From the IMG/VR virus record IMGVR_UViG_3300037067_004891, positions 224,001 through 288,000 of that record: a stretch of 64,000 nt of DNA; one strand, written 5' to 3'. This stretch comes from a virus. Taxonomy: Duplodnaviria > Caudoviricetes. This document shows, piece after piece, positions 2,219 to 63,333 of this stretch (position 1 is its first letter; the number at the start of each line of letters is the position of its first letter). The notes beneath the pieces are model-generated. The model was not told where the DNA came from. It did not search any database and worked only from the letters and a program-made list of their open reading frames with translations. Both the position numbers and the translations under genes were made by a program.

Positions 2219-2503
2219 ATGAGTATCGAAAAGGTGTATATTGAAAAATATAAATTAGATGAGTGGTTTTTTGACGATTATCAAGATAAACAATTAAAAA
2301 TAAGATTTTCAGATAGAATAGAATATAAATTAAATGGTGTGTATCACAATATTTATGATGCTGCTATAAAATTTCTCAGTAATTCTGGAATAGACCAATT
2401 TTATATTCACGGTAAACATTTTAAAGATAAAGTGGAATGGGAGTCTGAAGCTATTAAATTATCAAGAAAAAGTAAAATAAGAAATTTATTTAAAGAAGAA
2501 TAA
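2219..2503 (+). CDS. Hypothetical protein with C-terminal RxxKIxxL tag
   Basis: NGVYHNIYDAAI...FYIHGK resembles phage 'G.LHR.DGPA..WY..G' proteins; ends RKSKIRNLFKEE. Confidence 0.65.
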   Translation: MSIEKVYIEKYKLDEWFFDDYQDKQLKIRFSDRIEYKLNGVYHNIYDAAIKFLSNSGIDQFYIHGKHFKDKVEWESEAIKLSRKSKIRNLFKEE

Positions 2504-2605
2504 TTTTTTATTAAAAACAATTGGAAATATATTTTATTTGTTTATATTTACCTGTTTTTTATCTAAATAAAAATTAAAATATTTTTAAATACAACCTTAC
2601 AAAAA

Positions 2606-2956
2606 ATGAATGCTGGTATTTTTTCAAAATCACCATTGGCAACTACAAATTACAGCCAATTTCAAAAAGTAGACGAAATCACCTTTAAGAAAAGTGGAAT
2701 TAAGTATTCAGATCAATTAAAAAAAGAACAAAAGGTTCTAAAAGCCTTAATTACCGAAAAATTCCCAAATTTTATCAATGACAATCTTGTAGCTTTAAAA
2801 AAAGTCACAAACCAATTGTGTTCTATTAATGAAGATGACTATAAATTTGTAGACTTGAATTCATTTGAATATCAAAAGTTGATCACAAAGGAAATTTTTA
2901 TTTTGGTTGGTAAAGTAAAGGACATGAAAGAATTTTTTGAAAATGTTAATGTTTAA
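2606..2956 (+). CDS. Hypothetical protein
   Basis: 116-aa ORF whose stop abuts a tnpB right end. Confidence 0.6.
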   Translation: MNAGIFSKSPLATTNYSQFQKVDEITFKKSGIKYSDQLKKEQKVLKALITEKFPNFINDNLVALKKVTNQLCSINEDDYKFVDLNSFEYQKLITKEIFILVGKVKDMKEFFENVNV

Positions 2957-3234
2957 GTGAACTACCCACCCACGCCAAAGGCGATAGGATGGGCTTCGGG
3001 TTTCATAGAGCGTGCTTTGTTGCCAAAGTCTGATTTACTCTCCACCTTTGTAATGGACAGTTCCTGCCCATATATTTTTAATCCTTCTTTTAGAATGTTC
3101 TTTGCAGCATTAAGGTCACGGTCTAATACGTGTCCGTTTTTGCAAGTCCATTCTCTTATTGAAAGATTTAAGTCTTGATTTATCCAACCACATTCACAAC
3201 AGGTTTTACTTGATGGATACCAACGATTGTTCAT
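2957..3234 (-). pseudogene. tnpB: 5'-truncated tnpB (zinc finger + RuvC III) with IS200/IS605-type right end
   Basis: [13 protein letters not shown]...[21 protein letters not shown], then a hairpin ending ...gggtagttcac at 2957. The N-terminal ~280 aa are missing. Confidence 0.85.
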
Positions 3235-3239
3235 TTAAT

Positions 3240-4470
3240 TAATATTTAGATTCCAAATATATAATAAATACATTATATTTGCAACGTGGTTATAATAAAA
3301 ACATATAAACAGAAATTATATAAGTGTGAAAACAAAACTCAACACTTAAATGATCTTTTATACGTTGCCAAAGATGTTTATAATCATTGCATTGCGCTAC
3401 ATAAACGCTATTATAAATTATATAATAAATCACTGAATATATTTCAATTGCAAAAACATATCACAAAGATTAAAAAAACACATAAAAAGCATTGGTATAA
3501 ACTTAATTCTCAGTCTATTCAAGAAATAACGGAACGGATTGATAAGTCTTATAAATTATTCTTTCAGGAACGCAAACGTGGAAATAAAGAAATTAGTTTG
3601 CCAAAATTCAAAAGTTTCAGGAAATATAAGTCAATAACATATAAGACATCAGGTTATCAATACTTTCAGAATTCAATAATTATTCAAAATAGGACATACA
3701 AACTTTTTAAAGACAGACAAATAATTGGTAAAATTAAGACCATCACGGTGAAAAAAGATAGCATTGGTGACTGGTTTATTTGCGTTTCAGTACAGGAAAA
3801 TATTGAGCCAAGCCTTCAAAGAACTGGTAAAACAGTCGGGTTGGATTTTGGCTTGAAAACATTTCTGACTACATCGGACAGTGAAAAAAAAGAAAGCCCA
3901 GAATTCCTGAAATCTGACATGGCCAAATATCGAAAACTTTCAAAAAGTTTATCGAAAAAGGTCAAAGGCAGCAAAAACAGGAGAAAAGCAAGATTGTCAT
4001 TATGCCGTTTTCACGCTAAAATCACAAATAAACGTGATGATTGGCAATGGAAATTAGCCCGTGAATTGGTTGCGAAATATGATATTATAAGTGTTGAAAC
4101 GCTTAATATTAAAGCCATGCAGCGTTTGTGGGGAAGAAAAATAAGTGATCTTGCAATATCAAGTTTTTATTCCAAATTGGAATATCTCTGTAAAATTGAG
4201 GACAAAAAATTCGTCCAAATCGACAGATGGTATCCAAGTTCAAAAACATGTCATTGCTGTGGGCATATTTTAAAAGAATTGTCGCTAAGTCAAAGAACTT
4301 GGATTTGTCCGAAGTGTAATGTTGTCCATGATCGGGATGAAAACGCAGCAAAAAACATTGAAATGGTTGGGACATCGACCATTCGTTTAGCAGATGTAAG
4401 ACTTCATGCAAATGAAGCTGTCTGTGCTTGAGGCGAGAACCTCCCTGCCTTCAGGCGGGAGAGTATGTCA
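3240..4470 (+). mobile_element. IS1341/IS605-like tnpB-only element (left end approximate)
   Basis: Right-end hairpin ctccctgccttcaggcgggag (4441-4461), then terminal tatgtca (4470). It cuts off the adjacent minus-strand gene. Confidence 0.75.
3286..4431 (+). CDS. tnpB: TnpB RNA-guided endonuclease (IS200/IS605, no tnpA)
   Basis: RuvC I GLDFG, RuvC II SVETL, zinc finger CHCC/CPKC, RuvC III DRDENAA; catalytic residues intact. Confidence 0.95.
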   Translation: MVIIKTYKQKLYKCENKTQHLNDLLYVAKDVYNHCIALHKRYYKLYNKSLNIFQLQKHITKIKKTHKKHWYKLNSQSIQEITERIDKSYKLFFQERKRGNKEISLPKFKSFRKYKSITYKTSGYQYFQNSIIIQNRTYKLFKDRQIIGKIKTITVKKDSIGDWFICVSVQENIEPSLQRTGKTVGLDFGLKTFLTTSDSEKKESPEFLKSDMAKYRKLSKSLSKKVKGSKNRRKARLSLCRFHAKITNKRDDWQWKLARELVAKYDIISVETLNIKAMQRLWGRKISDLAISSFYSKLEYLCKIEDKKFVQIDRWYPSSKTCHCCGHILKELSLSQRTWICPKCNVVHDRDENAAKNIEMVGTSTIRLADVRLHANEAVCA

Positions 4471-4727
4471 GTTTTATATGAAAAGGGTCTCATCTTATAT
4501 TTATTTGATAATGCGCCACCATCTAATTCTAATTTAAAAACAGAAGTAGAAGAATCACCCAAGTATTCACCCATCATTTTGTCTCTGGTTGTTGATATAT
4601 TTGAAAAATATTTAGATGAAATTTTATTATGCTTTAAAATATAAAATATTTTTTCAATATCAATTATATGATAAAGACTACCAATATTTTTATACTCATT
4701 TAAGAATGAATAAAAATTTCTAAGCAT
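4471..4727 (-). pseudogene. CTS-tagged ART-like gene truncated by the tnpB element; paralog of 21173..21757
   Basis: MLRNFYSFLNEY...LYH...ISTTRD...LSNKYKMRPF parallels YHYTS...VSFSRN...LKNNYKIKPF. The last 21 aa of the track ORF come from the IS end. Confidence 0.7.
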
Positions 4728-5211
4728 TGCAATAACGTTTTATTTTATTCAAATCGTGTTTTAACAATTCTACCAATCCAAAATGTTTAGGTTTTATTTT
4801 AATTAGCTCGTCAAACGTTATCCATTTATAACTTTCAGTCTCCCAGTTTAATTCGGGTTCGAATTCTTCATCTATTAAACCTATAAAATTGAAATATTTA
4901 AAAGTCTTTGTGGGTGTTTCAAATATATATGCAGGTATTAGTTTGATATCACCACTGTATCCAGCTTCTTCTGTAAATTCTCTTTTAACAACATCCATAA
5001 TATCATCTTCAGTTTGACCGTATTCTTCATCTATCTTACCACCCCAAACTCCAAAACATTGAGACTCTAAGACATAAGCTGACCTAAAGGGAAGTAATAT
5101 TCTATTTGTTGAGGTACATATCGGTAACACTCCACCACCTACATTTCCCCAAAAATTATCACCAGCGTCATTATAACCATATTCTTCAAGAAATTTTTTA
5201 TAACTTTTCAT
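4720..5211 (-). CDS. Nudix hydrolase with CTS-like leader
   Basis: Nudix box GGKIDE...VKREFTEEAG (with an insertion); leader MKSYKKFLEE. Confidence 0.85.
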   Translation of the reverse strand: MKSYKKFLEEYGYNDAGDNFWGNVGGGVLPICTSTNRILLPFRSAYVLESQCFGVWGGKIDEEYGQTEDDIMDVVKREFTEEAGYSGDIKLIPAYIFETPTKTFKYFNFIGLIDEEFEPELNWETESYKWITFDELIKIKPKHFGLVELLKHDLNKIKRYCNA

Positions 5212-5213
5212 AT

Positions 5214-5720
5214 TTAATTCAATAAATTTTTATTGATATTTTCATCATAAAACACTTCTTCTATTAAGCCATCAAATTCATAATGTAAATCATACTCAAC
5301 TGGGTCAAATTCTTCACCATCATCAGTTATAAATTTATAGTCGGATTGCTCTGTTTCTTTATCTCTAACTATATATCCTTTGTATATTTTATATCTAAAA
5401 TGTATTTCACCAACATAAGCTACTGAATCATCTTCATCAGACATATTCTTCAACAAGAAACATATTTCTTTTGTTGAATCATAATATTTTTTGTTAATTA
5501 TATTTTCACCATTAAAAATGGAATTTTCAGAAGGTTCTTCCTCATCATTTTTTAAAATTTTCTGAACTTCGGGAGATTTAACATCTTCTATGTTTTTTAA
5601 TTGATTTTTTTCCTCTGGGGATAACGAGTTCATACCACTTTTAGAAATTTTATCTAATAAATTATCAAGTACTTTTGTTTGATAACTTGAATATTCTTCA
5701 AATAATAATAAAAATTTCAT
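5214..5720 (-). CDS. CTS-tagged hypothetical protein
   Basis: Likely start MKFLLLFEEY at 5720; contains LDNLLDKISKSGMNSLSPEEK (DUF6576-like helix). Confidence 0.65.
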   Translation of the reverse strand: MKFLLLFEEYSSYQTKVLDNLLDKISKSGMNSLSPEEKNQLKNIEDVKSPEVQKILKNDEEEPSENSIFNGENIINKKYYDSTKEICFLLKNMSDEDDSVAYVGEIHFRYKIYKGYIVRDKETEQSDYKFITDDGEEFDPVEYDLHYEFDGLIEEVFYDENINKNLLN

Positions 5721-5814
5721 TTTATATGTTTTATTTTTCATTATATATTAAATTATATTTTTCTAATAATGAACATTCAAATTTAAATATATAGATAAAA
5801 ATAGATAAACAACT

Positions 5815-6441
5815 ATGAATGATAGTGATTCAATAAACCAAGAAAAAAATAGAATCAGAGATAGTATAGAGATATTAGAACAGGAAATAACTGAAATAAA
5901 CATCGATCCAGATAATTTCTTTCCTGATGAAGTTCCAGGGCTTAATCTGAACATCACCCAATTTGATTATAAAGGTGAAATAGATAAAATACGAGAGGAA
6001 TGTCAAGAAACACTAAATTGTTTATCGAGCCTCTATCTCACCGATGAAATAGTAAGTAGGAAAAATGTCAACAATATAATTCAAAACGATGCACTGTCAT
6101 TGTGTGATTTAAAATTTTCAATGGCGATGTCCAAAAGAGCTTTAATTAATTTAATGGAACAAATTGATAGTGGTGTTAACCATCCTGAAATGTATGAAGC
6201 AGTTGGAACTTTTCAAAAAGAAATCCGTGATAGTATTAAAATGTTATATGATATACAAAAACGAATGAAAGAATTCTACAAAGAATTAAAAGATGAATTA
6301 TTAAATATCAATACTGGTGAAGAAACAGCTCCTGATATAGAACAACATGATAAAGTGAAAATCTTTGACCTTAGACTTATAAATAAAGAACTTGATGATT
6401 ATAAAGACTCGGCAAATGATAAGAAAAGAAAAAATAGTTAA
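5815..6441 (+). CDS. Putative terminase small subunit (T4 gp16-like)
   Basis: HPEMYEAVGTFQKEIRDSIKMLYDIQKRMKE resembles the gp16 PRAYEV...L.DLQKKMK helix. Confidence 0.5.
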   Translation: MNDSDSINQEKNRIRDSIEILEQEITEINIDPDNFFPDEVPGLNLNITQFDYKGEIDKIREECQETLNCLSSLYLTDEIVSRKNVNNIIQNDALSLCDLKFSMAMSKRALINLMEQIDSGVNHPEMYEAVGTFQKEIRDSIKMLYDIQKRMKEFYKELKDELLNINTGEETAPDIEQHDKVKIFDLRLINKELDDYKDSANDKKRKNS

Positions 6442-6618
6442 GTTTTTGTAAGAAAATATTTATTTTCAGAAAAAGACATTTTCCAATTAGATGGTAATAA
6501 CGTTTGTAAAGTTTTAATCTTTGTATATTTTTTTCTTTATCTCCAGTGAAACTAAATACAAATACTTTAAAAATATCATCAATTGTAATATTGACTTTCG
6601 AAAGTCAATATTTTCATG

Positions 6619-7227
6619 TTATTTAGATAATAATTTTATTAAATCATTTTTAATAATAGCTTTCAAAATAGGTGTTAAATTGGACACCACGACATATTCA
6701 TTAGTACCATCAACTGATAAATCTTCATTTAAATGCTTTTTAATAGAATCTAATGATTTATAATGTGTGATAACACCTTCTACTAATTCTTTTAAATTGA
6801 ATCCTTCTTTTGGATTATATTTAACAACTTGTAGTGTACTTTCGTTTCTATCCATTAAGAAATACCACAACTTCTTATTATCAATTTTAGCAGTTTCTAA
6901 AAAAAGAAAGGCATCTTGGGCTTTTATAACCTTTTCGAAAACAGCTATTTTATTTACGAATTTAATATTATTGAATAAATTTTCCAAATTGATGTTTGTA
7001 TTTTCTTTTTTTAAAGTCGGTTTAACTATTGTTGGTTTTTTTATTTCTGGTTTATCAATAGTAGCCCTATTAATACCAAAAGCATCATTTCTTTTTACCC
7101 TTGGTTCACTTACCTTTTTAACTTCTGCTTTAGGTTCACTAACTTTAGGTTCTTTTACAACAGGTTCTTTTAAAGAATGACTTTCTGTTGTCTTTTTAAA
7201 ATCGTTGAAACTTTTAATTATAGCCAA
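6619..7227 (-). CDS. Hypothetical protein, paralog of 55340..55717, with CTS-like leader
   Basis: Shared WY...KYN.KEGF.L...DLIKLL core; leader MAIIKSFNDF; KEP-rich linker. Confidence 0.7.
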   Translation of the reverse strand: MAIIKSFNDFKKTTESHSLKEPVVKEPKVSEPKAEVKKVSEPRVKRNDAFGINRATIDKPEIKKPTIVKPTLKKENTNINLENLFNNIKFVNKIAVFEKVIKAQDAFLFLETAKIDNKKLWYFLMDRNESTLQVVKYNPKEGFNLKELVEGVITHYKSLDSIKKHLNEDLSVDGTNEYVVVSNLTPILKAIIKNDLIKLLSK

Positions 7228-7281
7228 AATATCAATTTTATTTTTTAGTATATATTTATATTTAAAAGTCGTTTTTAATAC

Positions 7282-7318
7282 AAAAAATCAACGAAACGTT
7301 CAATTTCGTTGATTTTTT
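7282..7318. terminator. Intrinsic terminator hairpin
   Basis: aaaaaatcaacgaaa-cgttcaa-tttcgttgatttttt. Confidence 0.7.
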
Positions 7319-7399
7319 GTATTTTTAATGGTTTTTTATTAAAATCTACTAATAAAATACCGCTAAACTAAATATTTAGCTGTTTTCTTGTAAGTTTTC

Positions 7400-7882: not shown

Positions 7883-7917
7883 AATTTGTTTTTATATTTT
7901 TTATTTATATATTAATT

Positions 7918-8739: not shown

Positions 8740-8798
8740 AATTATTTACAATTTAATTTTAGATTATATATTAATTATTGAGTGTTTTCTATTTAAAA

Positions 8799-9434: not shown

Positions 9435-9472
9435 GCTTTATTTTTAAGCATATATATTAAGTGGAATTTTTT

Positions 9473-11023
9473 TTATTTCATATGAAAACATATTTCATCT
9501 AACCATCCATTTCTAAGAGAAGAACGATATGCACCCGATGAATTATTTTTAAAATTAGTTTTATTTTTGTATTTTAAAGCTTCTTCTACACATTTATCTA
9601 AAATCCAATAATTAATTGGTTTGTGTAGTTCTACCATATGAGAACATACAACATCCAACCATTTATTTCTTAATGCAGAATTATAAGCACCCGATGAATG
9701 TTTTTTAAAATCACCCTTATATTTATATTTTAAAGCTTCTTTTAAACATATAGATTTAGTATTCCATGCACCATTTTGTTTTTTATGTTTTTTCATATGA
9801 CTACATAATTCGTCAGACCATAAATTTCGATAAATACTGTTATATGCAGAGCCAGATTTAGTTCTAAAATCTTTTATATTATCATATTTTAGAGCTTCTC
9901 TATAACAATTATTTTTATTATTCCAAAAATTCTTTCTTTTTTGACATATTTTCATATGAGAACATACAACATCCAACCATTTATTTCTTAATGCAGAATT
10001 ATAAGCACTTGATGAATATTTTCTAAAATTTGTACGACAATTATATTTTTTAGCTTCTTCTTTACATTTTTCAAAATTCCAGTAACTAACTGGTTTATAT
10101 ATTTCTGTCATATGAGTACATATTTCAGTTAACCACCCATTTTTATAAGCACTTGAATAATATTTTTTAGAATGTTTTATAAATTCATATTTAGAATTAT
10201 ATTTTAAAGCCTCAATTAAACATTTTTCTTTTGTATTTATTATATTTCTACCGCCCAAACTTCCAGTTTTAATTTTATTTAAGACACACCAACCTTCTTT
10301 TTTATATTTAGATACAAAATAATTCTCTAAAATTTGAGCTTTTGATTTATCGACATATCCATCGGTTAATATTTTTAAGGTGGGTTTCAAGCCAGTATTA
10401 TTAATATAGAGAGAAACAGAACTTTTTTTATTATTAATATTTAAATGTGATTTGTTTCTTTCACTTAATTTATATGTCAATCCAACATAAACATGATTAT
10501 CTAAAAATTCATAAGAATAAACTATTCTATGAAATCTATCACCTACAATTTCCATATGAGAACATATTTCATCAATCCAATCGTTTCTAAGTGATGCTTT
10601 ATAAGCACTTCTTGAACCTTTTTGAAAATCTGATTTAGTATTATATTTTAAAGACTCTTTATGACATAAATTTTTATCATTCCAATACCCTGTTGGTTTT
10701 TGCAACTCTATCATATGTGAACAAAGTTCTTCTATCCACTTTTTCTCTAATAATTTAAAATAAACTGTTATATTATTTTCTTTTAGTTCTTTTTTAGTGT
10801 TATATTTTAAAGTAACTTCATGACAATTATTTTTATCATTCCAAAAATTTTTTGTTTTTTTAATTTCTTTCATGTGAGAACATATTTCATCCAACCATTT
10901 ATTTCTAATAGCTGATTTATAAGCACTTCTAAAAAATTTTTGAAATTCTATTTTGTTTTTACAAAGAATTGCAACTTTTAAACATATATCTTTATTATTC
11001 CAATATCCATTTGGATGTCTCAT
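9473..11023 (-). CDS. GIY-YIG endonuclease with eight ~52-aa tandem repeats
   Basis: IVYSYEFLDNHVYVGLT core; 3 repeats before and 5 after (W..K..C..EALKY...F......AY....RN.WLD..CSHM). Confidence 0.85.
   Translation of the reverse strand: MRHPNGYWNNKDICLKVAILCKNKIEFQKFFRSAYKSAIRNKWLDEICSHMKEIKKTKNFWNDKNNCHEVTLKYNTKKELKENNITVYFKLLEKKWIEELCSHMIELQKPTGYWNDKNLCHKESLKYNTKSDFQKGSRSAYKASLRNDWIDEICSHMEIVGDRFHRIVYSYEFLDNHVYVGLTYKLSERNKSHLNINNKKSSVSLYINNTGLKPTLKILTDGYVDKSKAQILENYFVSKYKKEGWCVLNKIKTGSLGGRNIINTKEKCLIEALKYNSKYEFIKHSKKYYSSAYKNGWLTEICTHMTEIYKPVSYWNFEKCKEEAKKYNCRTNFRKYSSSAYNSALRNKWLDVVCSHMKICQKRKNFWNNKNNCYREALKYDNIKDFRTKSGSAYNSIYRNLWSDELCSHMKKHKKQNGAWNTKSICLKEALKYKYKGDFKKHSSGAYNSALRNKWLDVVCSHMVELHKPINYWILDKCVEEALKYKNKTNFKNNSSGAYRSSLRNGWLDEICFHMK
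9635..10008. repeat. Identical 56-bp direct repeat (9635-9690 and 9953-10008)
   Basis: catatgagaacatacaacatccaaccatttatttcttaatgcagaattataagcac occurs twice. Confidence 0.85.
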
Positions 11024-11038: not shown

Positions 11039-11869
11039 TTAAAATCCAAATAATGTATATTGTCCACCTATACCAATATAAACAGAAGGTTTTATATTAC
11101 CATTATAATAAACAGCTCCAACACCAAGTTGTGGCCCGAATGTCCACTTATGCTGTGGTATTAATTTCTTTATAATGTCAGATTTTTGTGGGTCAATCAA
11201 CGAACCTTCTATATTTGTAAATTTTAAATCTGGGTAGTTTGATTTTACAAATATCCTTAATAGTCTATCTTCTTCTTTTAATCCAGTGACAATATTAAAA
11301 GTTAAACCAAAATCAGATAATTCTGAACCCTTTGATATAATACTATTAGTAACAGTATCCAGCACAAAAGATGTTTTACCTTTAATTATTCTAAAATTAT
11401 TTGTATCATATGTTTTTGAAAAATCCCAATATAATGAAGAAACATTTTCTCCATTAATTATCATACTTGTCAAAGAGTCTCTCAATGTCTTATTTTCTTT
11501 TTTTAAATTTGTATTATCAGTTTTCAATTGTGCCAACATATTAGAAATATAAATAACAGTTCCTTTTTGCTTTTCTAATTCATCAGCAAGTTGTTTACTA
11601 AAATCTTCTAATGTTTTTTTAGATGTAATCAGAATTATTTTTTCTTGTTGTAGTTCACCATTTTTATTTTTAACGGTTATTACAGTATCTTGTAATGCCA
11701 CTATATTATTTTGACTTATAAAAGCATCTTTACGTAGATTTTTATTTGATCCACATTGTAATAAAAGTAAAACGAAAAGAAATATAATAACTATAAAGTA
11801 TATTATTTTTTCGTTTTTAGGATTTTTCAAAAAAATCCAATTTTTTTTAAAAATTTCTAAAACTTTCAT
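11039..11869 (-). CDS. Putative spanin-like lysis protein
   Basis: N-terminal TM/lipobox-like LLLQC, a coiled coil, and C-terminal amphipathic beta strands ending YTLFGF; lies near the glucosaminidase gene. Confidence 0.5.
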   Translation of the reverse strand: MKVLEIFKKNWIFLKNPKNEKIIYFIVIIFLFVLLLLQCGSNKNLRKDAFISQNNIVALQDTVITVKNKNGELQQEKIILITSKKTLEDFSKQLADELEKQKGTVIYISNMLAQLKTDNTNLKKENKTLRDSLTSMIINGENVSSLYWDFSKTYDTNNFRIIKGKTSFVLDTVTNSIISKGSELSDFGLTFNIVTGLKEEDRLLRIFVKSNYPDLKFTNIEGSLIDPQKSDIIKKLIPQHKWTFGPQLGVGAVYYNGNIKPSVYIGIGGQYTLFGF

Positions 11870-27349: not shown

Positions 27350-27554
27350 ATATATTAAAAATGCTTTTTACTTATTTGAAAAAAATTCCATCTAACTTTC
27401 TTTTTCGAGTTGATATTTTTTAATGTTTTCCAATGTAGCTATTAATAATTCCGTCTCAATATTTATTAATTTAATATTATTTATAATTGTCAATTTTTTT
27501 CGATTATAGTACTTTTTTCATTAATATAGAAATTATAAAAAATTCCATATTGCA

Positions 27555-28067
27555 CTATTTATCACCAAAAATCTTTTCTATTTTCATTTTTCTTTCATTT
27601 ATATTATTACTATTATAACAAATTGTATTTATCATTAAAATCATTTTATCTTCAAACACCTTTTTACAATTTGATTTTTCTAACAATATTTCAATATTCC
27701 CACACATTTCATTCAATGTATTTTTTTTCATTTTTGCGATTAAAACTTCAGCATTATCAAGTTTCTCATTATTATATTCTTTCTGAACAGAATCATATAA
27801 TTTTTTTGTATTAATTAAATCATCAATAAGGGGTTGTGATGTATTCGTCTGATAAGCACATTTTATAAGATACCGAAATAGAAAACCAGCTTTCTGTCTG
27901 TTTTCTAATTTTAAATAATTCGTTTTCTTTTTTTCAGTAAATGGAAAATATGCCAATAATAAACTATAACTGATAATAACTGGGTTTGGTAATTTAACTG
28001 GATGTAATATTCCAAAATTAAGATATATATCCAAATTTTTCACTTTATTATAAACATTGTTTCTCAT
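27555..28067 (-). CDS. Hypothetical protein with C-terminal RxxKIxxI tag
   Basis: Ends ERKMKIEKIFGDK. Confidence 0.65.
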   Translation of the reverse strand: MRNNVYNKVKNLDIYLNFGILHPVKLPNPVIISYSLLLAYFPFTEKKKTNYLKLENRQKAGFLFRYLIKCAYQTNTSQPLIDDLINTKKLYDSVQKEYNNEKLDNAEVLIAKMKKNTLNEMCGNIEILLEKSNCKKVFEDKMILMINTICYNSNNINERKMKIEKIFGDK

Positions 28068-31735: not shown

Positions 31736-31750
31736 TCAACTCTCTTTATA

Positions 31751-31879
31751 TTTATTTACCCTTTTTAAATCAAAAATATCCTCAATCTTAGCTTTTCGTT
31801 CTTTGCGAAGTTTTTCTTTACGCATTAGTTCTTCAGCATGACTATTATCCCACGCCCACGTTGTTCCAGTTAGAGACAT
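31751..31879 (-). CDS. Micro-ORF with RxxKIxxI tag (3' end approximate)
   Basis: MSLTGTTWAWDNSHAEELMRKEKLRKERKAKIEDIFDL... Confidence 0.5.
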
Positions 31880-31880
31880 T

Positions 31881-31970
31881 TTAAATTAATTCATTTTTAT
31901 CAAAAATCGTGTCCAATTTTTGTTTACGTTCATCTTTTATTTTCTTCATTAAATCTAAATACTGTTTCAT
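31881..31970 (-). CDS. 29-aa micro-ORF with ThyA-like start and RxxKLxxI tag
   Basis: MKQYLDLMKKIKDERKQKLDTIFDKNELI; its ATG overlaps the upstream stop. Confidence 0.45.
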   Translation of the reverse strand: MKQYLDLMKKIKDERKQKLDTIFDKNELI

Positions 31971-44930: not shown

Positions 44931-45041
44931 AATATATAGTTATTTTTTATCTATATATTTAAAAATATGAGTCCAAATTATTCTTCAGGATTTTTTTTAC
45001 CCATCATATCTTATTATTTTTGTTTTATAATATAATAAAAT

Positions 45042-45353
45042 ATGACAGATTTAACTTTATATGACATTGATAATAAGGAATTTTTTTTTACGAAAGTGTC
45101 ATATGATATAAACAAGAATAGAAAGCGTTTTTCATATTTAACTGATTCATTTTTATTAATTAATAATAAATCATATTTGTCATTAATAACAACTCAGGGG
45201 AGTAGTTATATTTTTTATCAAGATATTTGGTTTAGATATAATAATCTTTATAATATCTCTTTAAAATCAGATTTACAATTATGGAATACACCAAATATAG
45301 GTAGACGGCTTGCTACTTTAAATAAGTTTTTCGATGAAGGGGAATTAGCATGA
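45042..45353 (+). CDS. Hypothetical protein with a degenerate C-terminal tag
   Basis: Ends RRLATLNKFFDEGELA. Confidence 0.55.
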   Translation: MTDLTLYDIDNKEFFFTKVSYDINKNRKRFSYLTDSFLLINNKSYLSLITTQGSSYIFYQDIWFRYNNLYNISLKSDLQLWNTPNIGRRLATLNKFFDEGELA

Positions 45354-45907
45354 GTAGAAAAGTAAACATAGAAATTACCGATTCACATAGAAGGATATAC
45401 AGTAAACTTCTTACTTTAAATAAAAAAAGTAAAGGTGGTCTGGGTTTTCATTATAAAAATAAATCCAGTTTGAATATATTAAAAGAATTAGAAAAACTTG
45501 GTTATGTTGAATATAAATATAAACAGTCAGAGACCAGAGTGTATAAACATGTAAATGAAATTATTTATTATTTATTTTATGAATCTACTGGTAAAAAAAT
45601 GACTAATAAAAAATTGCCTACTAAACCAATTTCAAGAATATATGATGAAGATGATATAGAATTAATACTCGTTCGAAGAAAAGTTGAACTTGAATATGGT
45701 TGGGATGATACAATACTTATCAATGATAAAGAATCTGATGTTTACAAAACGAAATTTAATAATTATTATATTAAATTCGAAGATAGGATGTATAAAATCA
45801 TCAACGATTTAGATTTTCAATATGTAAAGTATTCAAAATTTTGGACGCTACCAGAATTAAAACGAACAAGAGTAAATAAAATAAAGGAGTTATTCCCCGA
45901 ATTTTAA
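45350..45907 (+). CDS. Hypothetical protein with RxxKIxxL tag
   Basis: Ends RTRVNKIKELFPEF. Confidence 0.6.
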   Translation: MSRKVNIEITDSHRRIYSKLLTLNKKSKGGLGFHYKNKSSLNILKELEKLGYVEYKYKQSETRVYKHVNEIIYYLFYESTGKKMTNKKLPTKPISRIYDEDDIELILVRRKVELEYGWDDTILINDKESDVYKTKFNNYYIKFEDRMYKIINDLDFQYVKYSKFWTLPELKRTRVNKIKELFPEF

Positions 45908-45967
45908 TTAAACAAACATTTTATTTTTATTAAAATAATATATAAAGAAAAAATAAAATGTTTTTAA

Positions 45968-47343: not shown

Positions 47344-49896
47344 ATGATAAGAACCGAAGTATTAAATAAAGAAAAACTATCTAATATCATATATAGTTAT
47401 GGTGAACCGTATGACTTTGATAAGAAAATAAAATATTTTCATTATTTTGATATTCGGTCATCACATTTGGACTATGATCCCAATGAAAAATATAAAGCCA
47501 GAACATATTTTGTCACCTTATTTGATGATGATGATATCATCGGATTAGCTAAATTACAAGAAAATCCATATAATCAACAAGGTTTATTTTGGATACAGTA
47601 CATTTCCATCGATGATAAACACCAAGGAATGAGATATTCAAAATATATTATTGATAGAATGATAAAATTTTGCAAAGAAAATAAATTTAAATTGAAAACA
47701 TCTGGTTATTCAACAAAAGGGTGGGAACGTCTAAGGGAATATCTTCATTTATCTGCGGGTGCAAATGATGTGGAATTAATTGATACCAAAGAAAAACCAG
47801 AATACGAAAACCACACTTCAATAGACACATTAGTTAATACAAAAGTCATAGATTTTAATAAAAAACCGTTGATTGTATATCATGGAACAAATAATAAATT
47901 CGATATTTTCGATATAAATATGATAAACACAAATGAGAAGAGTGGTGATTATATTGGTTCGGGAATATATTTCACACGTTATAAAGACACTGCATTAAAA
48001 TACGCAAAACAGGCGGTGAAAAAAGGTGGGGGTTTAGTAAATATTATATCGGCATATTTAAATATCGAACATCCATTAATTATAAATAACACATCAGATG
48101 CTCAAAAATTGAGAGATTTATTTGGCGGGGAATTTAATTATTTTTCTATTTTGGATGACAATCCAAATCTTATTAAAGATGAATTAATAAAATTGGGTTA
48201 CGATGGTTTAATAGACAATATGTATAATCAATATGCAGTATTTGAACCAAGTCAAATTAAAATAATTGATAATTCTGTATCATTACAAAATGAAAATATT
48301 GTTAGTTTTTCAAATTTCATTGTAAATGAAGAACATGACTACACCAAAGAATCCATTTTAAAATTTATAAAAGATAGAAATCTTTATTTAATGGATGGAA
48401 AATATTTGGAATTATATCATGGAACAGACCCAGCATCATATAGAAAAATAGAAAAATCTGGTAAATTAAAATCTGGTACATGGTTCGGGATAGATTATGA
48501 AACATCAAGAAGATATGGTTTAATGAGATTACACAGAGGTGAACCAGTGGTAATGAAGATTTATGTTGATATTGATTCCTTATATATATCAAGTGAATAT
48601 TTTATTGCTAAACACGATTTAAAGATGAACTTGATGTATGGTTCTGGTTCTAATGTTTATGAAAATAAAAATCCAAATATAAAATGCTATATTTGCGAGA
48701 ATAATAATACAAAAGAAGAAATGTTCATACCTGAAGATATATTAGAGTTTCACGATTTATTTACTCAGGCTGGTAAAAAACTTTTTTTAGTTGGGGGTTG
48801 TATCCGTGATTATATAATGGGTAAAACACCACATGATTATGATTTAGTAACTGATGCATCACCAGATGAGACTAAACAAATTTTAAAAAATTACAGAACA
48901 AATTTACAGGGCGCACATTTTGGTGTAATAAGAGTGTATACCGAAGATGAACCAAAGGGATATGAAGTAGCTTCTTACAGGCGTGATATCTCAAAAGGAC
49001 GCTCAAATAAAGGCGATGATCAAAAAGTTGAAATCGGTTCTCATATCACTATTAAAGATGATGTTTTAAGAAGGGACATAACTCAGAATGCGTTATTTTA
49101 TGATATTGGTAAAAAAGAAATAATAGATTTAGTTGGTGGTATAGAAGATATTAAAAATGGTATTATACGAGCTGTCGGTAATCCAATGGAACGATTCAAT
49201 GAAGACCGTCTTAGAATTTTGAGAGTTTTTCGTTTTTCAGCCCGTTCACGTTTTAAAATTGATGATGAAACAGCGAATGCTATAAAAAAGGACAACCGTC
49301 TGAACGGTTTATCACCTGAAGAAGATGTTTCCCAAGAAAGAATACTGGAAGAAATTTTTAAAATATGGGAATATGCATCCGAAAAAAATGATTTACCTGC
49401 TTGGAAACTATATCTCAAATATCTGACTGAGTTTAAAATGTGGAATCAGATGTTTAAAAACATGCTTATTAATGAGGATGTGATTAACATTGATAGTTTA
49501 GATTTAATTCAGATGTATACATATTTATTTCTGGATAATACTCCAGATACTGAATTTAATAAACGTTTGATTAGAACATTTAAATTTTCATCGGATAATG
49601 CTAATATAATTTGTTTTCTATTAACATTTTATAATAATATCAATGATGTCGATAAGGTGTTTGATATGAAAAAGAAACAAAACCAATTTGATATTGACCC
49701 GAATATTATAAAAGAATTTTCTGATATACATAAACTGGATAAAAAATTTACTGATAAATTCATTGAATATGATTTAACAGTATCAGGACAAGAATTAATG
49801 GATTCTGGACTAAAAGGAAATGAAATTGGTATAGAACAAAGGAAGCAAGAAAAAGAAATTTTTCAAAATATGATTAACGAATCTTTTGATTTTTGA
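47344..49896 (+). CDS. Polyvalent protein: GNAT + two ART-like domains + CCA-adding enzyme/poly(A) polymerase
   Basis: ISIDDKHQGMRYS (GNAT); VYHGT...GSGIYFT...GYDG...FEPSQIK; LYHGT...GTWF; LVGGCIRD...DYDLVT...RRDITQNAL...EDRLRILR. Confidence 0.85.
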   Translation: MIRTEVLNKEKLSNIIYSYGEPYDFDKKIKYFHYFDIRSSHLDYDPNEKYKARTYFVTLFDDDDIIGLAKLQENPYNQQGLFWIQYISIDDKHQGMRYSKYIIDRMIKFCKENKFKLKTSGYSTKGWERLREYLHLSAGANDVELIDTKEKPEYENHTSIDTLVNTKVIDFNKKPLIVYHGTNNKFDIFDINMINTNEKSGDYIGSGIYFTRYKDTALKYAKQAVKKGGGLVNIISAYLNIEHPLIINNTSDAQKLRDLFGGEFNYFSILDDNPNLIKDELIKLGYDGLIDNMYNQYAVFEPSQIKIIDNSVSLQNENIVSFSNFIVNEEHDYTKESILKFIKDRNLYLMDGKYLELYHGTDPASYRKIEKSGKLKSGTWFGIDYETSRRYGLMRLHRGEPVVMKIYVDIDSLYISSEYFIAKHDLKMNLMYGSGSNVYENKNPNIKCYICENNNTKEEMFIPEDILEFHDLFTQAGKKLFLVGGCIRDYIMGKTPHDYDLVTDASPDETKQILKNYRTNLQGAHFGVIRVYTEDEPKGYEVASYRRDISKGRSNKGDDQKVEIGSHITIKDDVLRRDITQNALFYDIGKKEIIDLVGGIEDIKNGIIRAVGNPMERFNEDRLRILRVFRFSARSRFKIDDETANAIKKDNRLNGLSPEEDVSQERILEEIFKIWEYASEKNDLPAWKLYLKYLTEFKMWNQMFKNMLINEDVINIDSLDLIQMYTYLFLDNTPDTEFNKRLIRTFKFSSDNANIICFLLTFYNNINDVDKVFDMKKKQNQFDIDPNIIKEFSDIHKLDKKFTDKFIEYDLTVSGQELMDSGLKGNEIGIEQRKQEKEIFQNMINESFDF

Positions 49897-55717: not shown

Positions 55718-55718
55718 T

Positions 55719-56291: not shown

Positions 56292-56300
56292 TTTATATTA

Positions 56301-57086: not shown

Positions 57087-57093
57087 CTGAATA

Positions 57094-57810: not shown

Positions 57811-57827
57811 AATTATACTTATATTTT

Positions 57828-59303: not shown

Positions 59304-59377
59304 TTTATAATAATTGATTTTGTTGTATATATTAAATAAATTATTTATTTTTGTAAATTAAACAAATTAATATTTTT

Positions 59378-60109
59378 ATGAAAAATATAATGAAAAAATT
59401 TTCACATAAAATTAAAAACGTGTTTAATCAATTAATTATAGCTATTTTTATAGTTATTGGTTTTACTTTTTTGAGTTCTATTACTAATAATGTTCAATAT
59501 ATAGAAGTCAAAGTACCAGTTAAAGTACCAACCCCTTATGAAATAAACTTTTTAAATATAGAACAGTTTATTCACGAATTAAGCTTATTTGAATCAGCTA
59601 CAAACTATGCTGCAAGACGACCAAATGAAGTAATAAATGGTGACACACTATGGTCACAATATTGGGGGAGATACCAATTTGGGGAAGCTTGTAGAATATG
59701 TTTAGAAATAGACCACATATCATGGGATAAATTTAAAAATAATACTGAACTTCAAGACGCTGCAATGATTTATTATATTGCAATTCTTAATAGTCGATTT
59801 GAACATTATATTGAAATAAAAGACTCTACCACTATTGTTAGAAATATATTTGATGAATATTCTAATAAAGTTATAAGAACACATTATATAACCAACAGTG
59901 GCTTGGTAGCAATGGCTCATAATATAGGCATTTCAACAGTGGTCGATTTCTTGGATTCTGGTTGTAAAAATGAACCTAAAGATGGTTTCGAAACACAATC
60001 TTCAAATTACTTGGCATTATCAAATTTTGACTTAAATGTGTCAAAAGATGAAGCTAAATCTAATTTAGATAAAATACTCAAAAAATATAATCTTCAGAGG
60101 GGTATATAA
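59378..60109 (+). CDS. Membrane-anchored lysozyme-like protein
   Basis: TM segment; FES..NY...GRYQF...LQD...AHN.G. Confidence 0.65.
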   Translation: MKNIMKKFSHKIKNVFNQLIIAIFIVIGFTFLSSITNNVQYIEVKVPVKVPTPYEINFLNIEQFIHELSLFESATNYAARRPNEVINGDTLWSQYWGRYQFGEACRICLEIDHISWDKFKNNTELQDAAMIYYIAILNSRFEHYIEIKDSTTIVRNIFDEYSNKVIRTHYITNSGLVAMAHNIGISTVVDFLDSGCKNEPKDGFETQSSNYLALSNFDLNVSKDEAKSNLDKILKKYNLQRGI

Positions 60110-60348
60110 TGGATGAAAATATATACGAATTATATAAACTGGGCTTTACTTGTGAAAGTCCAGTTTCTTTTATTTTAAAGAATGAAGGTGTCCGAGAAAT
60201 GTTAATTGAATCAAATATTCGTTATAGTTCATTATGGGTTAAGATTTCCCAAGGTCAATACAGAATGATTAAAAAAGAAAAAACGTTAGAAGAATTAATA
60301 CCTACAATAAAAAAAGAAGTCCGTGCATTAAAAATCAGAAATCTCTAA
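60109..60348 (+). CDS. Small protein with RxxKIxxL tag
   Basis: Ends EVRALKIRNL. Confidence 0.6.
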   Translation: MDENIYELYKLGFTCESPVSFILKNEGVREMLIESNIRYSSLWVKISQGQYRMIKKEKTLEELIPTIKKEVRALKIRNL

Positions 60349-60675
60349 TATTTTCAATTTTCTCAGAACCTGTTTAATACGTCTATTAATTTCTGGTTTA
60401 TCTTTTGTGGCTTCATCCAGTTCATTCAGTGTTCTAATATTCTTGTTTTACTCGTCTATTACTTTAATTAGTTCCTTTTTAGTCAAAGTTATATTAGGAT
60501 ATAAAACTGATATATTATTTTTATCTGACGGGACAAAAATAATTTCAAATATAGTATCATCTGATTTTTCATTCAATTTAGATTGAATTTTTCTATAATA
60601 ATCTAACTTCTCGTTATATTCATCCAATGATAAATCTCTTGGTATATCAAGTCTTAGTATAATTATGTTATTCAT
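60328..60675 (-). pseudogene. ORF with in-frame TAA at 60448; the continuation ends in the RxxKIxxI tag
   Basis: KVIDE*NKNIRTLNELDEATKDKPEINRRIKQVLRKLKILEISDF*. Confidence 0.5.
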
Positions 60676-60970
60676 ATATTGATAATATTTTATATTTTCT
60701 TTGTTGTTGAAGATATATCTGGTATAATTTATCTATATTAAGATATTCAAATTTCTTTTCATTCACATATGCTAAATGAATAATTTCTTTAGAACCTTCT
60801 ATTAATTCAAATTTACTCATGTCTATTTTAAACACCTTCATTGTATCGGGATTAAAATTTAAAACATCCAATAAATAATATTCACCATCTTTATTAATAA
60901 TTACTGGTTTATAAAGTGATGAATAATTAACATGCTTAATTAATTCTTTATAATGATAACAATCTTCCAT
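60668..60970 (-). CDS. Small protein with RxxKIxxI tag
   Basis: Ends QQRKYKILSIYE. Confidence 0.6.
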   Translation of the reverse strand: MEDCYHYKELIKHVNYSSLYKPVIINKDGEYYLLDVLNFNPDTMKVFKIDMSKFELIEGSKEIIHLAYVNEKKFEYLNIDKLYQIYLQQQRKYKILSIYE

Positions 60971-60972
60971 AT

Positions 60973-61635
60973 TTATAATTTAAAAACTTCTAACATAGGT
61001 TTATATTTTAAATTTAAATAATCAAATTTATCAATATATTCGCCCGTTATTAGATTCCAATATCGAGTGAACCATTTCCTATTATTAGTAGAATAATAAT
61101 ATTGTAATTTTTTTTCTAAATCACCGAACGATATTGGTTTATATTTATATTCCTTCCTATTAGGTCTACCTTCAATAACTTTCACACCAATCCCATCGAG
61201 TATAGGTTTATAATTAAGATTCAATAAATCGTTATTATTAAAAAATTCAGGTAATCTATTAAAATGGTCAAAAACTATTTTTTGAAATAGATGGTCACGT
61301 TTCATTGGATAAACATAATAGTAACTCATAATATGATTATATGAAACAAAGTCCTCGTCTTTATTGAACTCAGCTTTCATATTATTATACAAATCCGTGT
61401 TTTCTATTACAAATTGTAAATTGTTAAATGTTTTACTAATATTTTTAAATGTAGATTTTTTAACAAATTTTGATTCATTATTCACAGGCACGATTTTAGG
61501 TATCGATTTATTTTCATCAGATTTAATCTGTGAGTTATAAAATTCCTTCTTCAATTTCAAAATTTTATTATCGAATTCTTCTTGTAAGTTCCTTATTTTT
61601 TTGAGGAATAATTCTTCAACTTCACTATTTATCAT
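60973..61635 (-). CDS. Hypothetical protein
   Basis: 220-aa ORF within the operon. Confidence 0.6.
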   Translation of the reverse strand: MINSEVEELFLKKIRNLQEEFDNKILKLKKEFYNSQIKSDENKSIPKIVPVNNESKFVKKSTFKNISKTFNNLQFVIENTDLYNNMKAEFNKDEDFVSYNHIMSYYYVYPMKRDHLFQKIVFDHFNRLPEFFNNNDLLNLNYKPILDGIGVKVIEGRPNRKEYKYKPISFGDLEKKLQYYYSTNNRKWFTRYWNLITGEYIDKFDYLNLKYKPMLEVFKL

Positions 61636-62245
61636 ATAGTATCGTATAATTTATTCATATTTAAAACCACCTCATATATGATTCGGTCTAAATTTTCAAT
61701 TGGTGGTTTATTTTCAAATACTAAATCAAACCCTTCATAGTTATCTAACTCAATCTCGGACGCATGGTTCATATCTCGTTGGTCATTTGCTCTCAGGCTG
61801 GTTGGGTCACCATTTAATCTAACCAATAATCCACCCATTTTTTTAATATAATTAGCCTCATTTAAAAACCGAACATCTGATACAACCCAGTTATCATATT
61901 CAGGATGATATTTTGAAAATAATGATAAAACCCATGCATCATGATGTAGATTATTTCTAATAGCTTCTGTACCTATTTTCTGTTGCATTTCTCCAACTGT
62001 CATACCCCACTCTGGAAGATATTTTAATTTTCCTTCTCTGGACATAACATCATCCATTGACAAACCAGTTAGATAGGATACAATAAATTTTAAATCATAA
62101 GCAAATTTTTTATTTTCAAATTTTACACCACGACTCCCATAATACTGAATAATTCGTTCTGCAAAAGCATCTTTTCCATTTAACCCGACCCTATCTTACC
62201 AGAAATACCGATTAGATAGGGTCGTTTTTTTATTGTTTTATTCAT
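61632..62245 (-). pseudogene. dNMP kinase (T4 gp1-like) with a disrupted 5' end
   Basis: LIGISGKIGSG / GKDAFA...FAYDLK...QKIGTE...VSDVRFLNE...HASE; frameshifts near 62230 and 62180. Confidence 0.8.
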
Positions 62246-62326
62246 TTTAATTATTTTTTTTTTTAAATTTATCAATAAAAATATTATCCTCTATACTAAT
62301 TTTTCCACTCACACCTATTAACATTT

Positions 62327-62839
62327 TTATTTTATTATTTTTTCTCCAATAATCTTTTTATTTATTGATAAAAAAATCGGATTATACCTGTAATCATTGG
62401 TTACATCATTTTTAAACCAAGGGTCAGGTACATAACTTTGGGTTGATATCATATCACTATGATATTCAACAACCATAATATTTTCGTTTATATTATCATA
62501 CTTAATTAACGAGATAAGATTATTTTTAGAGTCATTTAAGGCATATTGGGTATAATGTATCACTTTGGGTTTTGAAACCGCATACATCACCTCAAATTCA
62601 CTTTGGGATATGTTTATTCTTATATGATTCCTTTTTATAGTGCCTATATCTTTAATGTTTAATGAAAAATCTGTTTCATTGACACACTCGACATAAGTTT
62701 CAAGACTATCACTTTCCTTATTCAGGAAAGCTATCATATACTTTTCAAACAGAAAAACATTTAAATTTAAGCTGGACGGTAAAACACTAACATAAAACCT
62801 TTTACAGTATTCAATACTTAAACAAGACAAATCTGTCAT
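62327..62839 (-). CDS. Degenerate CYTH-domain protein
   Basis: IE..KRFYV...VVEY...PDPWFKNDVTNDYRY follows the CYTH layout. Confidence 0.6.
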   Translation of the reverse strand: MTDLSCLSIEYCKRFYVSVLPSSLNLNVFLFEKYMIAFLNKESDSLETYVECVNETDFSLNIKDIGTIKRNHIRINISQSEFEVMYAVSKPKVIHYTQYALNDSKNNLISLIKYDNINENIMVVEYHSDMISTQSYVPDPWFKNDVTNDYRYNPIFLSINKKIIGEKIIK

Positions 62840-62909
62840 AATGTTTTTATTTTCTTATATTCCTTGAAATAGTTTTTGTTTAGAAAATATTTAGAAAAAT
62901 TAAAATATT

Positions 62910-63113
62910 TCATTTTAAAATTTTTTCAATTTTAATTTTCCGAATTTCATTTATACTATTTGTGTAACATGTGAGAAATTCAACAACATTTATTTGTATA
63001 ACATTTTCACAACCATCTTCAATTAAATAAACAACATTTCCATCACATTTATCATATTGATATTGTTTGTATGTATATATATTATAAAATGTATTATAAT
63101 TACTCATCATCAT
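62910..63113 (-). CDS. Small protein with RxxKIxxI tag
   Basis: Ends EIRKIKIEKILK. Confidence 0.6.
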   Translation of the reverse strand: MMMSNYNTFYNIYTYKQYQYDKCDGNVVYLIEDGCENVIQINVVEFLTCYTNSINEIRKIKIEKILK

Positions 63114-63333
63114 CCAAAATATTTTTTATCTTCAATCTCCGTATTTCATTTTTATCTGCTGTGAATCTCTCATAAAAATTTGGAATACTAAAATATTTTT
63201 TCTTACTTGTTCCAACTGGTCTTAAAGTTGCCTGATGGTTATTTATAGATAAAACATAATATTTTCTTTCTGTAAGTTTATCATATATAATTTTATTAGA
63301 ATCTATTAAAAAATGATCTGATTGGTTAATCAT
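63100..63333 (-). CDS. Small protein with RxxKIxxI tag
   Basis: Ends EIRRLKIKNILDDDE. Confidence 0.6.
   Translation of the reverse strand: MINQSDHFLIDSNKIIYDKLTERKYYVLSINNHQATLRPVGTSKKKYFSIPNFYERFTADKNEIRRLKIKNILDDDE

Follow-up and report, generated by a model that had tools for sequence, protein, structure and literature searches.

In bacteriophage T4, gp43, gp33, and gp55 each bind the clamp through a hydrophobic-acidic tail, and these tails can replace one another (PMC2988020). The capsid-targeting sequence (CTS) of the T4 proteins IPI-III and Alt is a targeting peptide of another type, which is N-terminal, is cleaved by the prohead protease, and occurs on packaged proteins, and the ssrA- and MuA-type signals of ClpX are short C-terminal peptides that can be moved between proteins. 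In this study, we focus on a C-terminal motif, R..K[IL]..[IL] (dots stand for any residue; hereafter the tag), found in a 64,000-nucleotide (nt) stretch of phage DNA (the window), which comprises bases 224001-288000 of the 421,673-bp IMG/VR viral record IMGVR_UViG_3300037067_004891 (G000; 25.7% G+C; completeness judged 59%). The tag is real, strongly selected, and portable; it is borne, in lineage-specific dialects, by accessory proteins of a T4-related clade of huge phages, and promoter motifs place these proteins in a putative early class. It is shared by otherwise unrelated proteins, is under selection, and looks like an address label.

Relatives of G000 were retrieved with an 871-residue (aa) protein of the window as the query. 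Both G001, a complete genome of 639,979 bp with terminal repeats, and G002 (675,678 bp) hold a copy ~80% identical to that of G000, and the same protein led to the remoter "huge phages" LR756501 (735 kb), LR745206 (635 kb), and LR756500 (462 kb); the comparison spans four lineages. The T4-type core genes of the clade include the Gp23 capsid protein, a T4-like portal, an S80 prohead protease fused to a repeat scaffold, and the tail sheath, and its T4-type replication genes include gp32, UvsX, a DnaB-like helicase, the gp44 clamp loader, FEN/RNase H, and a split family-B polymerase. The source of the window is a giant, T4-related phage, probably of Bacteroidota. The gene set is a crude one, namely the longest non-overlapping open reading frames (ORFs) of at least 30 aa with an ATG start, and a match was scored as C-terminal when it lay no more than 15 residues from the C-terminus.

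The existence of the tag is far beyond chance. In G000, where C-terminal positions make up 7.8% of all, 39 matches are C-terminal and 15 internal, with 4.2 C-terminal ones expected (p = 2.1e-31); the corresponding figures are 105 and 32, with 12.1 expected, for G001 (p = 1.7e-81), and 110 and 29, with 11.4 expected, for LR745206 (p = 2.8e-91). A first-pass annotation of the window had noted the motif on about 10 small proteins and had proposed a comparison with internal positions, at which an equal frequency would have spoken for chance; C-termini are clearly favoured, and the count was too low, as the tag marks roughly 7-10% of the genes in this clade. The 105 cases of G001 give the consensus [ILE]-R-K-x-K-[IL]-[KE]-[EKSN]-[IL]-[FL]-x-[DE], the core of which is followed by 1-5 residues in most cases (full range 1-12). 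Residue requirements are strict: position 0 is Arg in 84 of 101 C-terminal matches of G001 and Lys in 2, although Arg makes up 3% and Lys 10% of the residues of the proteome, position 3 is Lys in 84 of 89, and positions 4 and 7 are Ile or Leu in 84 of 86 and 84 of 85, respectively. Tagged proteins have a median size of 108 aa and range from 29 to 731 aa across lineages. A full-text literature search found no published description of the tag.

Selection acts on the tag peptide and not on the DNA. The Arg, Lys, Ile, Leu, and Phe codons at tag positions (AGA, CGN, AAA/AAG, ATA/ATT, and TTA/CTN) are used as they are genome-wide, and 25% of the tagged genes are followed by a gap of at least 60 nt or by a convergent gene; it is therefore the peptide that carries the signal. 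Of the 364 reciprocal best hits that link G000 to G001, both members bear the tag in 24 pairs and the G000 member alone in none, and the single pair tagged in G001 only is a gene with a nonsense codon in G000. Within the 24 pairs, identity is 77% in the tag versus 50% in the bodies, and tagged proteins as a whole diverge faster than the rest (median identity 56% versus 75%). Two further ortholog pairs between G001 and LR745206, at 33-42% identity, both retain the tag. Conservation among homologs, the absence of which the first-pass annotation had named as a ground for refutation, was thus found in 24 of 24 close pairs and in both remote ones, and these comparisons indicate that the tag is under purifying selection.

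The form of the tag differs between lineages. G000, G001, and G002 share an R-K dialect, whereas LR745206, in which tagged genes are as numerous, uses R-[DEN]-x-K-[IL]-x-x-[IL]-[LI], with D/E/N rather than K at position 1 and L/I at position 8; its sub-forms include endings of the type ..KLxxLGI and an RKxKIxNIF form on about eleven tiny proteins. LR756501 has no R..K[IL]..[IL] family (3 C-terminal versus 11 internal matches) and carries a C-terminal tag of its own, [KR]x[IV]xR[VI][FY][ST]xxDPYGEExWxx, on ~42 proteins of 55-843 aa (e.g., L114:5582-5884 and L134:15795-16034, within the surveyed loci L107-L143 of LR756501.1). LR756500 likewise has no tag family of the R..K[IL]..[IL] type (2 C-terminal versus 18 internal). 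Since ..KIENIF.. of LR745206 and ..EIVRVF.. of LR756501 line up where the two lineages share a capsid-fragment body, a hydrophobic core I-x-x-[IV]-F being alignable across dialects, the dialects look like diverged versions of one ancestral tag. An exact DNA pattern scan across IMG/VR returned in-frame C-terminal copies almost exclusively from the G000-G003 clade, plus three other contigs. Separately, in LR756500.1 (loci L242-L265), ~13 proteins, most of them ~250-280 aa long, end in ..NADDFG[FL][FLI]DN and look like one paralogous family.

The bodies to which the tag is attached are diverse. BLASTP detected one paralogous pair among the 39 tagged bodies of G000, and 95 of 104 bodies in G001 and 107 of 109 in LR745206 are singletons; at this level of search, their description as unrelated proteins holds, and the bodies, among them an Acb3 domain and copied pieces of large proteins unrelated to each other, do not form a single paralogous family by detectable common descent. 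No match over curated family cut-offs was obtained for 19 tagged G000 proteins in Pfam, NCBIfam, or PHROGs, nor for six tagged proteins of LR756501 and LR745206 in NCBIfam. Wherever a body can be named, the tag is an add-on. The protein encoded at 536538-537245 of G001 contains a complete Acb3 (CBASS inhibitor) domain (residues 44-217, profile positions 53-244 of 245), and the tag falls in the 18 residues thereafter; a homologue of the anti-CBASS protein Acb1 at 314500-315033 of the same genome is untagged. Several tiny tagged proteins consist of the tag and a copied fragment of a larger phage protein, namely the major capsid protein, the prohead protease-scaffold, or a DUF2201 protein, and in LR756501 a tail-sheath fragment bears the DPYGEExW tag of its own lineage. 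A segment resembling a transmembrane helix occurs in 2% of tagged versus 11% of untagged small proteins, and the tagged bodies are predicted to be soluble.

Fragments of large proteins in general are not in excess among tagged genes (14 of 284 versus 94 of 2364). For copies of capsid and protease-scaffold fragments, 9 of 23 small proteins are tagged (5 with R..K[IL]..[IL] and 4 with the DPYGEExW tag of LR756501) versus 10.7% of all small proteins (p = 3.7e-4). These mini-genes (Table 1) are diverged copies of the phages' own Gp23 (14 small proteins) and protease-scaffold (9), ~40% of them tagged, and one C-terminal capsid piece was found in two lineages, each time with a different tag. They may be decoys or assembly regulators.

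Tagged genes are clustered, with 34 adjacent pairs versus 10.7 expected (maximum 21 in 2000 shuffles), and 57% of them, versus 34% of untagged small genes, have a same-strand gene no more than 15 nt downstream. Two upstream motifs are enriched genome-wide in G001: TAnnTTTG, which we take to be the -7 promoter box of Bacteroidota, and a phage motif, TTTTTTTTTTAATATATAA, which sits 20-40 nt upstream of structural and replication genes, including those of the capsid, protease-scaffold, sheath, polymerase, gp32, and UvsX, as well as the portal operon. Among the genes behind TAnnTTTG are those of MoxR and DUF2201. The resulting promoter classes, assigned from motifs and not from RNA data, support a Bacteroidota host. 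Among genes with a motif of their own, the host-type and phage motifs are found before 20 and 1 tagged genes and before 75 and 103 untagged small genes, respectively (Fisher p = 1.9e-6). When resolved by operon, 57% of tagged genes are host-type and 12% phage, compared with 31% and 36% of untagged small genes (Fisher p = 5e-9). Because they lie almost only behind host-type promoters, the tagged genes are most likely early genes read by the host RNA polymerase. The earlier view of the tagged proteins as non-virion gains indirect support here, as they fall in the host-promoter class and not in the class that drives head and tail genes.

Within the window, a six-frame scan returned 22 matches to R..K[IL]..[IL], of which 11 lie in real frames, 0-12 residues before the stop; the rest lie in short non-coding frames, apart from one internal match in a real frame (REGKLKYL, 127 aa from the protein end). 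All nine intact tags and both broken ones that had been reported from the window were found in place (Table 1), and some carriers, namely those of 47 and 29 aa, are indeed little more than the tag. The tag that had been read after a stop belongs to a gene broken by a single change from CAA, present in the DNA of G001, to TAA; an alternative genetic code was rejected on this ground. The one ascribed to a frameshift is what is left of a paralogue of which G002 has an intact copy. The 12-nt overlap of convergent tagged genes at 60337-60348 makes the ends of RALKIRNL (+) and RKLKILEISDF (-) share bases. No Pfam, NCBIfam, or PHROG match was obtained for the 94-aa tagged protein, and a homology search with the 170-aa tagged protein returned only the query itself. 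Elsewhere in the window, positions 9473-11023 encode a 516-aa protein with a GIY-YIG nuclease domain, and multi-copy families of likely homing endonucleases, judged as such from copy number and C-terminal sequences only, are scattered over the genomes.

Table 1. Tagged genes of the window, fragment mini-genes, replication-protein tails, and Clp genes. Rows marked window use window coordinates; other rows are given per genome.
Genome	Feature	Position	Strand	Tag or C-terminal tail	Relatives and remarks
Window	94-aa tagged gene	2219..2503	+	RKSKIRNLF (2465-2491), then KEE + stop	G001 ortholog RRSKIRNIF, body 68% identical
Window	Tagged-paralogue remnant	27372..27407	-	RKRKLDGIFFK + stop (tag 27407-27384)	Stop codon 4 codons 5' of Arg; G002 counterpart at same place intact, 147 aa, tagged; G001 form 73 aa
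Window	170-aa tagged gene	27555..28067	-	RKMKIEKIF (27593-27567), then GDK + stop	Tag kept in G001, G002, and G003 orthologs, 52-57% identical
Window	47-aa tagged protein, little beyond tag	31736..31879	-	RKAKIEDIF (31798-31772)	G001 ortholog 44 aa, RKAKIEEIL, body 78% identical
Window	29-aa tagged protein, essentially one helix and tag	31881..31970	-	RKQKLDTIF (31928-31902)	Candidate counterpart: 85-aa tagged G001 gene (RKAKIEEIL) adjoining the 44-aa ortholog above
Window	185-aa tagged gene	45350..45907	+	RVNKIKELF (45869-45895), then PEF + stop	"FPEF" sub-variant; G001 ortholog RKTKILDIF, body 56% identical
Window	79-aa tagged gene	60109..60348	+	RALKIRNL (60322-60345), exactly terminal	Weakest member, tag-profile score 5.9; no G001 ortholog found
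Window	Tagged gene with one nonsense codon	60337..60675	-	RKLKILEISDF (tag 60363-60340)	75-aa ORF 60448-60675, TAA at 60448-60450, then 36 in-frame codons to the tag; G001 protein intact, 115 aa, tagged
Window	100-aa tagged gene	60668..60970	-	RKYKILSIY (60700-60674), then E + stop	G001 ortholog RKEKISSLY
Window	67-aa tagged gene	62910..63113	-	RKIKIEKIL (62942-62916), then K + stop	G001 ortholog RKLKIDDIL
Window	77-aa tagged gene	63100..63333	-	RRLKIKNIL (63141-63115), then DDDE + stop	G001 ortholog RKLKIKKIL
G001	Capsid/scaffold-fragment mini-genes	312594-312878, 632926-633117, 632676-632933			
LR745206	Capsid/scaffold-fragment mini-genes	207176-207907, 255010-255237, 460435-460686			
LR756501	Capsid/scaffold-fragment mini-genes	145891-146127, 552409-552918, 11314-11850			
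G001	Family-B polymerase (PolB), N-terminal gene	634646-636127			
G001	PolB, C-terminal part	514604-516571		..FSSIFDF	
G000	PolB, C-terminal part	44993-45967, 48105-49094		..SIFNF	Interrupted by ~2 kb of inserted sequence
LR745206	PolB, C-terminal part			..MDIFGGFK	
LR756501	PolB, C-terminal part			..MLFDADDYVDEDDLLD	
LR756500	PolB, C-terminal part	248783-249724		..SSSLF	
LR756500	RNase H/FEN	206684-207886		..DNSLF	
LR756500	Ligase-like protein	356125-357315		..QVSLF	
G001	UvsX			..KLFD	
G000	UvsX			..KLFD	
LR745206	UvsX			..DIFG	
LR756501	UvsX			..KLFD	
LR745206	Clp genes	424469-424990, 123568-124089, 75197-75721			
LR756501	Clp gene	352811-353323			

The interpretation that we favour, and to which we give about an even chance, is that the tag may serve as a portable docking helix gripped by one common partner. 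The tag is a short linear motif, which can be summarized as [ILE]-R-K-x-K-[IL]-[KE]-x-[IL]-[FL]-[DNE]-[DE]. It would form ~2.5 helix turns with R0, K3, [IL]4, [IL]7, and [FL]8 on one face, since helix geometry places these residues within ~140 degrees of arc, and such an arrangement fits docking on a partner. Its carriers are more than 100 accessory proteins that share no homology, are soluble, and evolve fast, at least one of them anti-defence, and they are probably made early from host-type promoters; a single shared partner would hold them all by the helix, and joint drift of tag and partner would give rise to the dialects of sister lineages. An amphipathic docking helix had already been proposed in the first-pass annotation, and much of that proposal stands: the signal is at the protein level, portable on non-homologous bodies, conserved, and predicted to be helical, with five conserved residues probably on one face, from which docking itself may be conjectured.

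As for the partner, the sliding clamp of a T4-type phage, or a replisome hub, would be the best single candidate, a guess that is still weak and that we regard as doubtful. The clamp is favoured because the [IL]xx[IL]F core followed by an acid resembles both the tails of the clade's own polymerase and UvsX (Table 1) and the clamp-binding tails of T4, where gp43 ends in ..SLDFLFG. Some tags have the polymerase-like endings ..LFNF or ..IFEF, and in LR745206 the residue that follows I-F is G, K, or N both in the replisome tails and in the RK-type tags, as against D or E in G001. A gp44 clamp loader was found (phmmer against T4 gp44, 3e-16), and its presence leads one to expect a clamp. In LR756500, the polymerase C-terminal part, RNase H/FEN, and a ligase-like protein share an S-L-F terminus that is likely a clamp-binding tail. 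The full scenario, in which about a hundred early accessory proteins (anti-defence proteins, decoy-like capsid and tail fragments, and tag-only competitors) would be recruited by a lineage-specific helix to a clamp hub on replicating phage DNA, is unlikely in our estimate.

Several observations weigh against docking on a clamp. No clamp gene was recognized by PF02916, PF09116, PF00712, PF02768, or PF00705, nor by phmmer or hhalign against T4 gp45. The polymerase and UvsX tails have neither R0 nor K3, which are invariant in the tag and make up its part of highest specificity, and the shared [IL]F[DNEG] is of low information, occurring in the last 5 residues of 16 of 915 untagged G001 proteins; the co-variation of tails and tags is drawn from three lineages only. 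To our knowledge, no virus offers a precedent for about a hundred clamp clients, some of 29-47 aa. A clamp loader and ..SLF tails occur in LR756500 without a large tag family, and a clamp alone is therefore not enough to bring about the tag. As regards the helix itself, the AlphaFold2 model of the 170-aa window protein is all-helical, and the tag closes a terminal helix of 50 residues in a stretch modelled at low confidence (predicted local distance difference test 61-70), but the model was built on a shallow alignment of four sequences, and no other of the five models was confident.

Gene order around gp44, compared over three genomes, also failed to locate a clamp, and PF13177 and PF07733 gave no match over cut-off. 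Individual candidates were set aside: the invariant residues of G001_37 mark it as RuvC-like, G001_88, a protein of no named function that is conserved and widespread, has conserved residues that seem unlike those of a clamp, G001_720 has a hydrophobic N-terminus, and a weak PCNA_N match falls in a 126-aa protein that was not taken as a clamp. Regarding the replication genes, the N- and C-terminal genes of the split polymerase lie ~120 kb apart in G001. At 47344-49896 the window encodes an 850-aa polyvalent protein (GNAT, ART-PolyVal, and CCA-adding/poly(A) polymerase head domains) whose tail, ..NESFDF, is like the polymerase endings ..SIFNF and ..SIFDF. Beside the helicase and UvsX genes, 65267-66028 of G001 (L038:5270-6028) encodes a 253-aa protein of a very conserved family (50-60% identity, 231 matches, no Pfam) with the invariant tail L-x-x-L-x-x-I-[ND]-F-[VLM], which may be a late-transcription or replication factor.

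The best-surviving alternative, although an unlikely one, is a degron for timed turnover, by which a host or phage unfoldase or protease would clear early proteins while tag-only mini-proteins compete. The C-terminal location of the tag, its association with early-class genes, and the conservation of tag-only proteins of 29-47 aa all suit such a role. Of proteolytic machinery, LR745206 encodes two ClpP and a two-ring ATPase like ClpC/ClpB, LR756501 encodes a Clp ATPase only, and M16 and M42 peptidases together with a MoxR and VWA-metallopeptidase pair are conserved in G001, LR745206, and LR756501. However, neither a Clp ATPase (AAA_2) nor ClpP was found in G000, G001, or G002, the clade with this very tag, and a phage Clp system was rejected as its reader there. 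Classical C-degrons have a non-polar end, whereas the tag lies 1-12 residues from the terminus and its last residues are polar or acidic, and it differs sharply between lineages even though host proteases are conserved. The MoxR and DUF2201 pair was likewise rejected as the reader, as each of the four lineages has it, even LR756500 with no tag family, and a tag-like stretch inside DUF2201 does not change from lineage to lineage. This pair, in which MoxR is an AAA+ ATPase and DUF2201 joins an HExxH metallopeptidase to a VWA domain, lies behind host-type promoters (G001 346559-347860 and 348985-350691; G000 107031-108707). With regard to other possible readers, the only BRCT domain over cut-off lies inside LigA and occurs in the two R..K lineages but not in LR756501, a distribution that agrees with that of the R..K dialects but covers three genomes only, and among 43 G001 genes shared with LR745206 and unmatched in LR756501 no convincing reader was found.

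A hyper-diverged multigene family, similar to the terminal gene families of large DNA viruses, in which a common C-terminal helix would pack on its own body or pair with itself, appears quite improbable. Tandem clustering, similar sizes around the median of 108 aa, a few clear paralogous pairs, and the long helix that the tag prolongs in the one model made are what such a family would lead one to expect; the different origins of the bodies (an Acb3 domain and capsid, scaffold, and DUF2201 fragments, within a size range of 29 to 731 aa) and the 95-107 BLASTP singletons per genome are not. Moreover, R0 and K3 appear to share the hydrophobic face, which would suit a groove on another protein better than a bundle of like with like.

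It is very unlikely that the tag is a second capsid-targeting signal, a helix that docks inside the T4-type procapsid or scaffold so that tagged proteins are packed and injected. Diverse bodies with a shared targeting peptide are the pattern of the T4 internal proteins, a very large capsid is expected, and the tagging of capsid and scaffold fragments is in excess as given above, but tagged genes have host-type promoters and not the phage motif of the capsid, protease-scaffold, sheath, and portal genes, which speaks against packaging into the head. By the first-pass annotation, moreover, a putative CTS-like tag at the N-terminus would already mark other proteins of this genome. Less probable still is an amphipathic membrane-targeting helix of the MinD or FtsA kind. 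The tag is a short basic-hydrophobic C-terminal helix that superficially resembles MinD tails, yet it has three hydrophobic residues only, its Arg and Lys are not interchangeable at position 0, positions 4 and 7 admit essentially Ile and Leu alone, and the LR756501 dialect is acidic; such strict residue requirements would point to a protein reader. A DNA-level or translational gene-end signal (next-gene start region, terminator, or arrest peptide) or chance in K/I-rich sequence has a negligible probability: the close downstream genes of tagged genes and their A-rich tag codons might suggest it, but codon choice at the genome average with CGN and CTN included, the quarter of tagged genes with a distant or convergent neighbour, the variable stop distance, enrichment at p 1e-31 to 1e-91, and the near-confinement of in-frame C-terminal copies to this clade led to its rejection.

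Most genes of huge phages are without known function, and the tag groups 7-10% of them for joint study; its partner, once named, would point to the site or process in which about a hundred proteins act. In uncultured phages, among them the 735-kb record holder with its own dialect, the tag also gives a sequence criterion by which candidate early accessory and anti-defence proteins can be picked out, and it is a natural case of a peptide code changing in concert over a whole proteome. If the clamp were the reader, the three clients to which the principle applies in T4 would be outnumbered more than tenfold, the clamp would be an organising platform of infection rather than a tool-belt for a few enzymes, and the largest known phages would have a proteome-scale address code.

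Among known systems, the clamp-binding tails of T4 gp43, gp33, and gp55 have, like the tag, a place at the extreme C-terminus of functionally different proteins and, in outline only, a hydrophobic core followed by an acid; T4, however, has no more than three or four proteins of this kind, each of which acts on a DNA or RNA polymerase, whereas here there are about 100 per genome, most of them tiny. The h-x-x-h-F of the tag ([IL]4, [IL]7, [FL]8) matches the h4-x-x-a7-a8 spacing of the PCNA-interacting protein (PIP) box, but departs from its full form, Q-x-x-[ILM]-x-x-[FY]-[FY], in having K (D/E/N in LR745206) at position 1 and an aliphatic residue at position 7. MuA-type ClpX signals consist of basic and then hydrophobic residues, and together with the ssrA type they are C-terminal, short, and movable, as is the tag, but signals for AAA+ proteases need a free end at a fixed place, whereas the tag is trailed by 1-12 polar or acidic residues in a clade that has no Clp system of its own. 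In MinD and FtsA helices, character and not residue identity is conserved, while the residues of the tag are nearly fixed. Finally, the T4 CTS resembles the tag in being one targeting peptide on diverse, fast-evolving, lineage-specific small proteins, but differs from it in terminus, in cleavage, and in being packaged, the tag being C-terminal and in the putative early promoter class.

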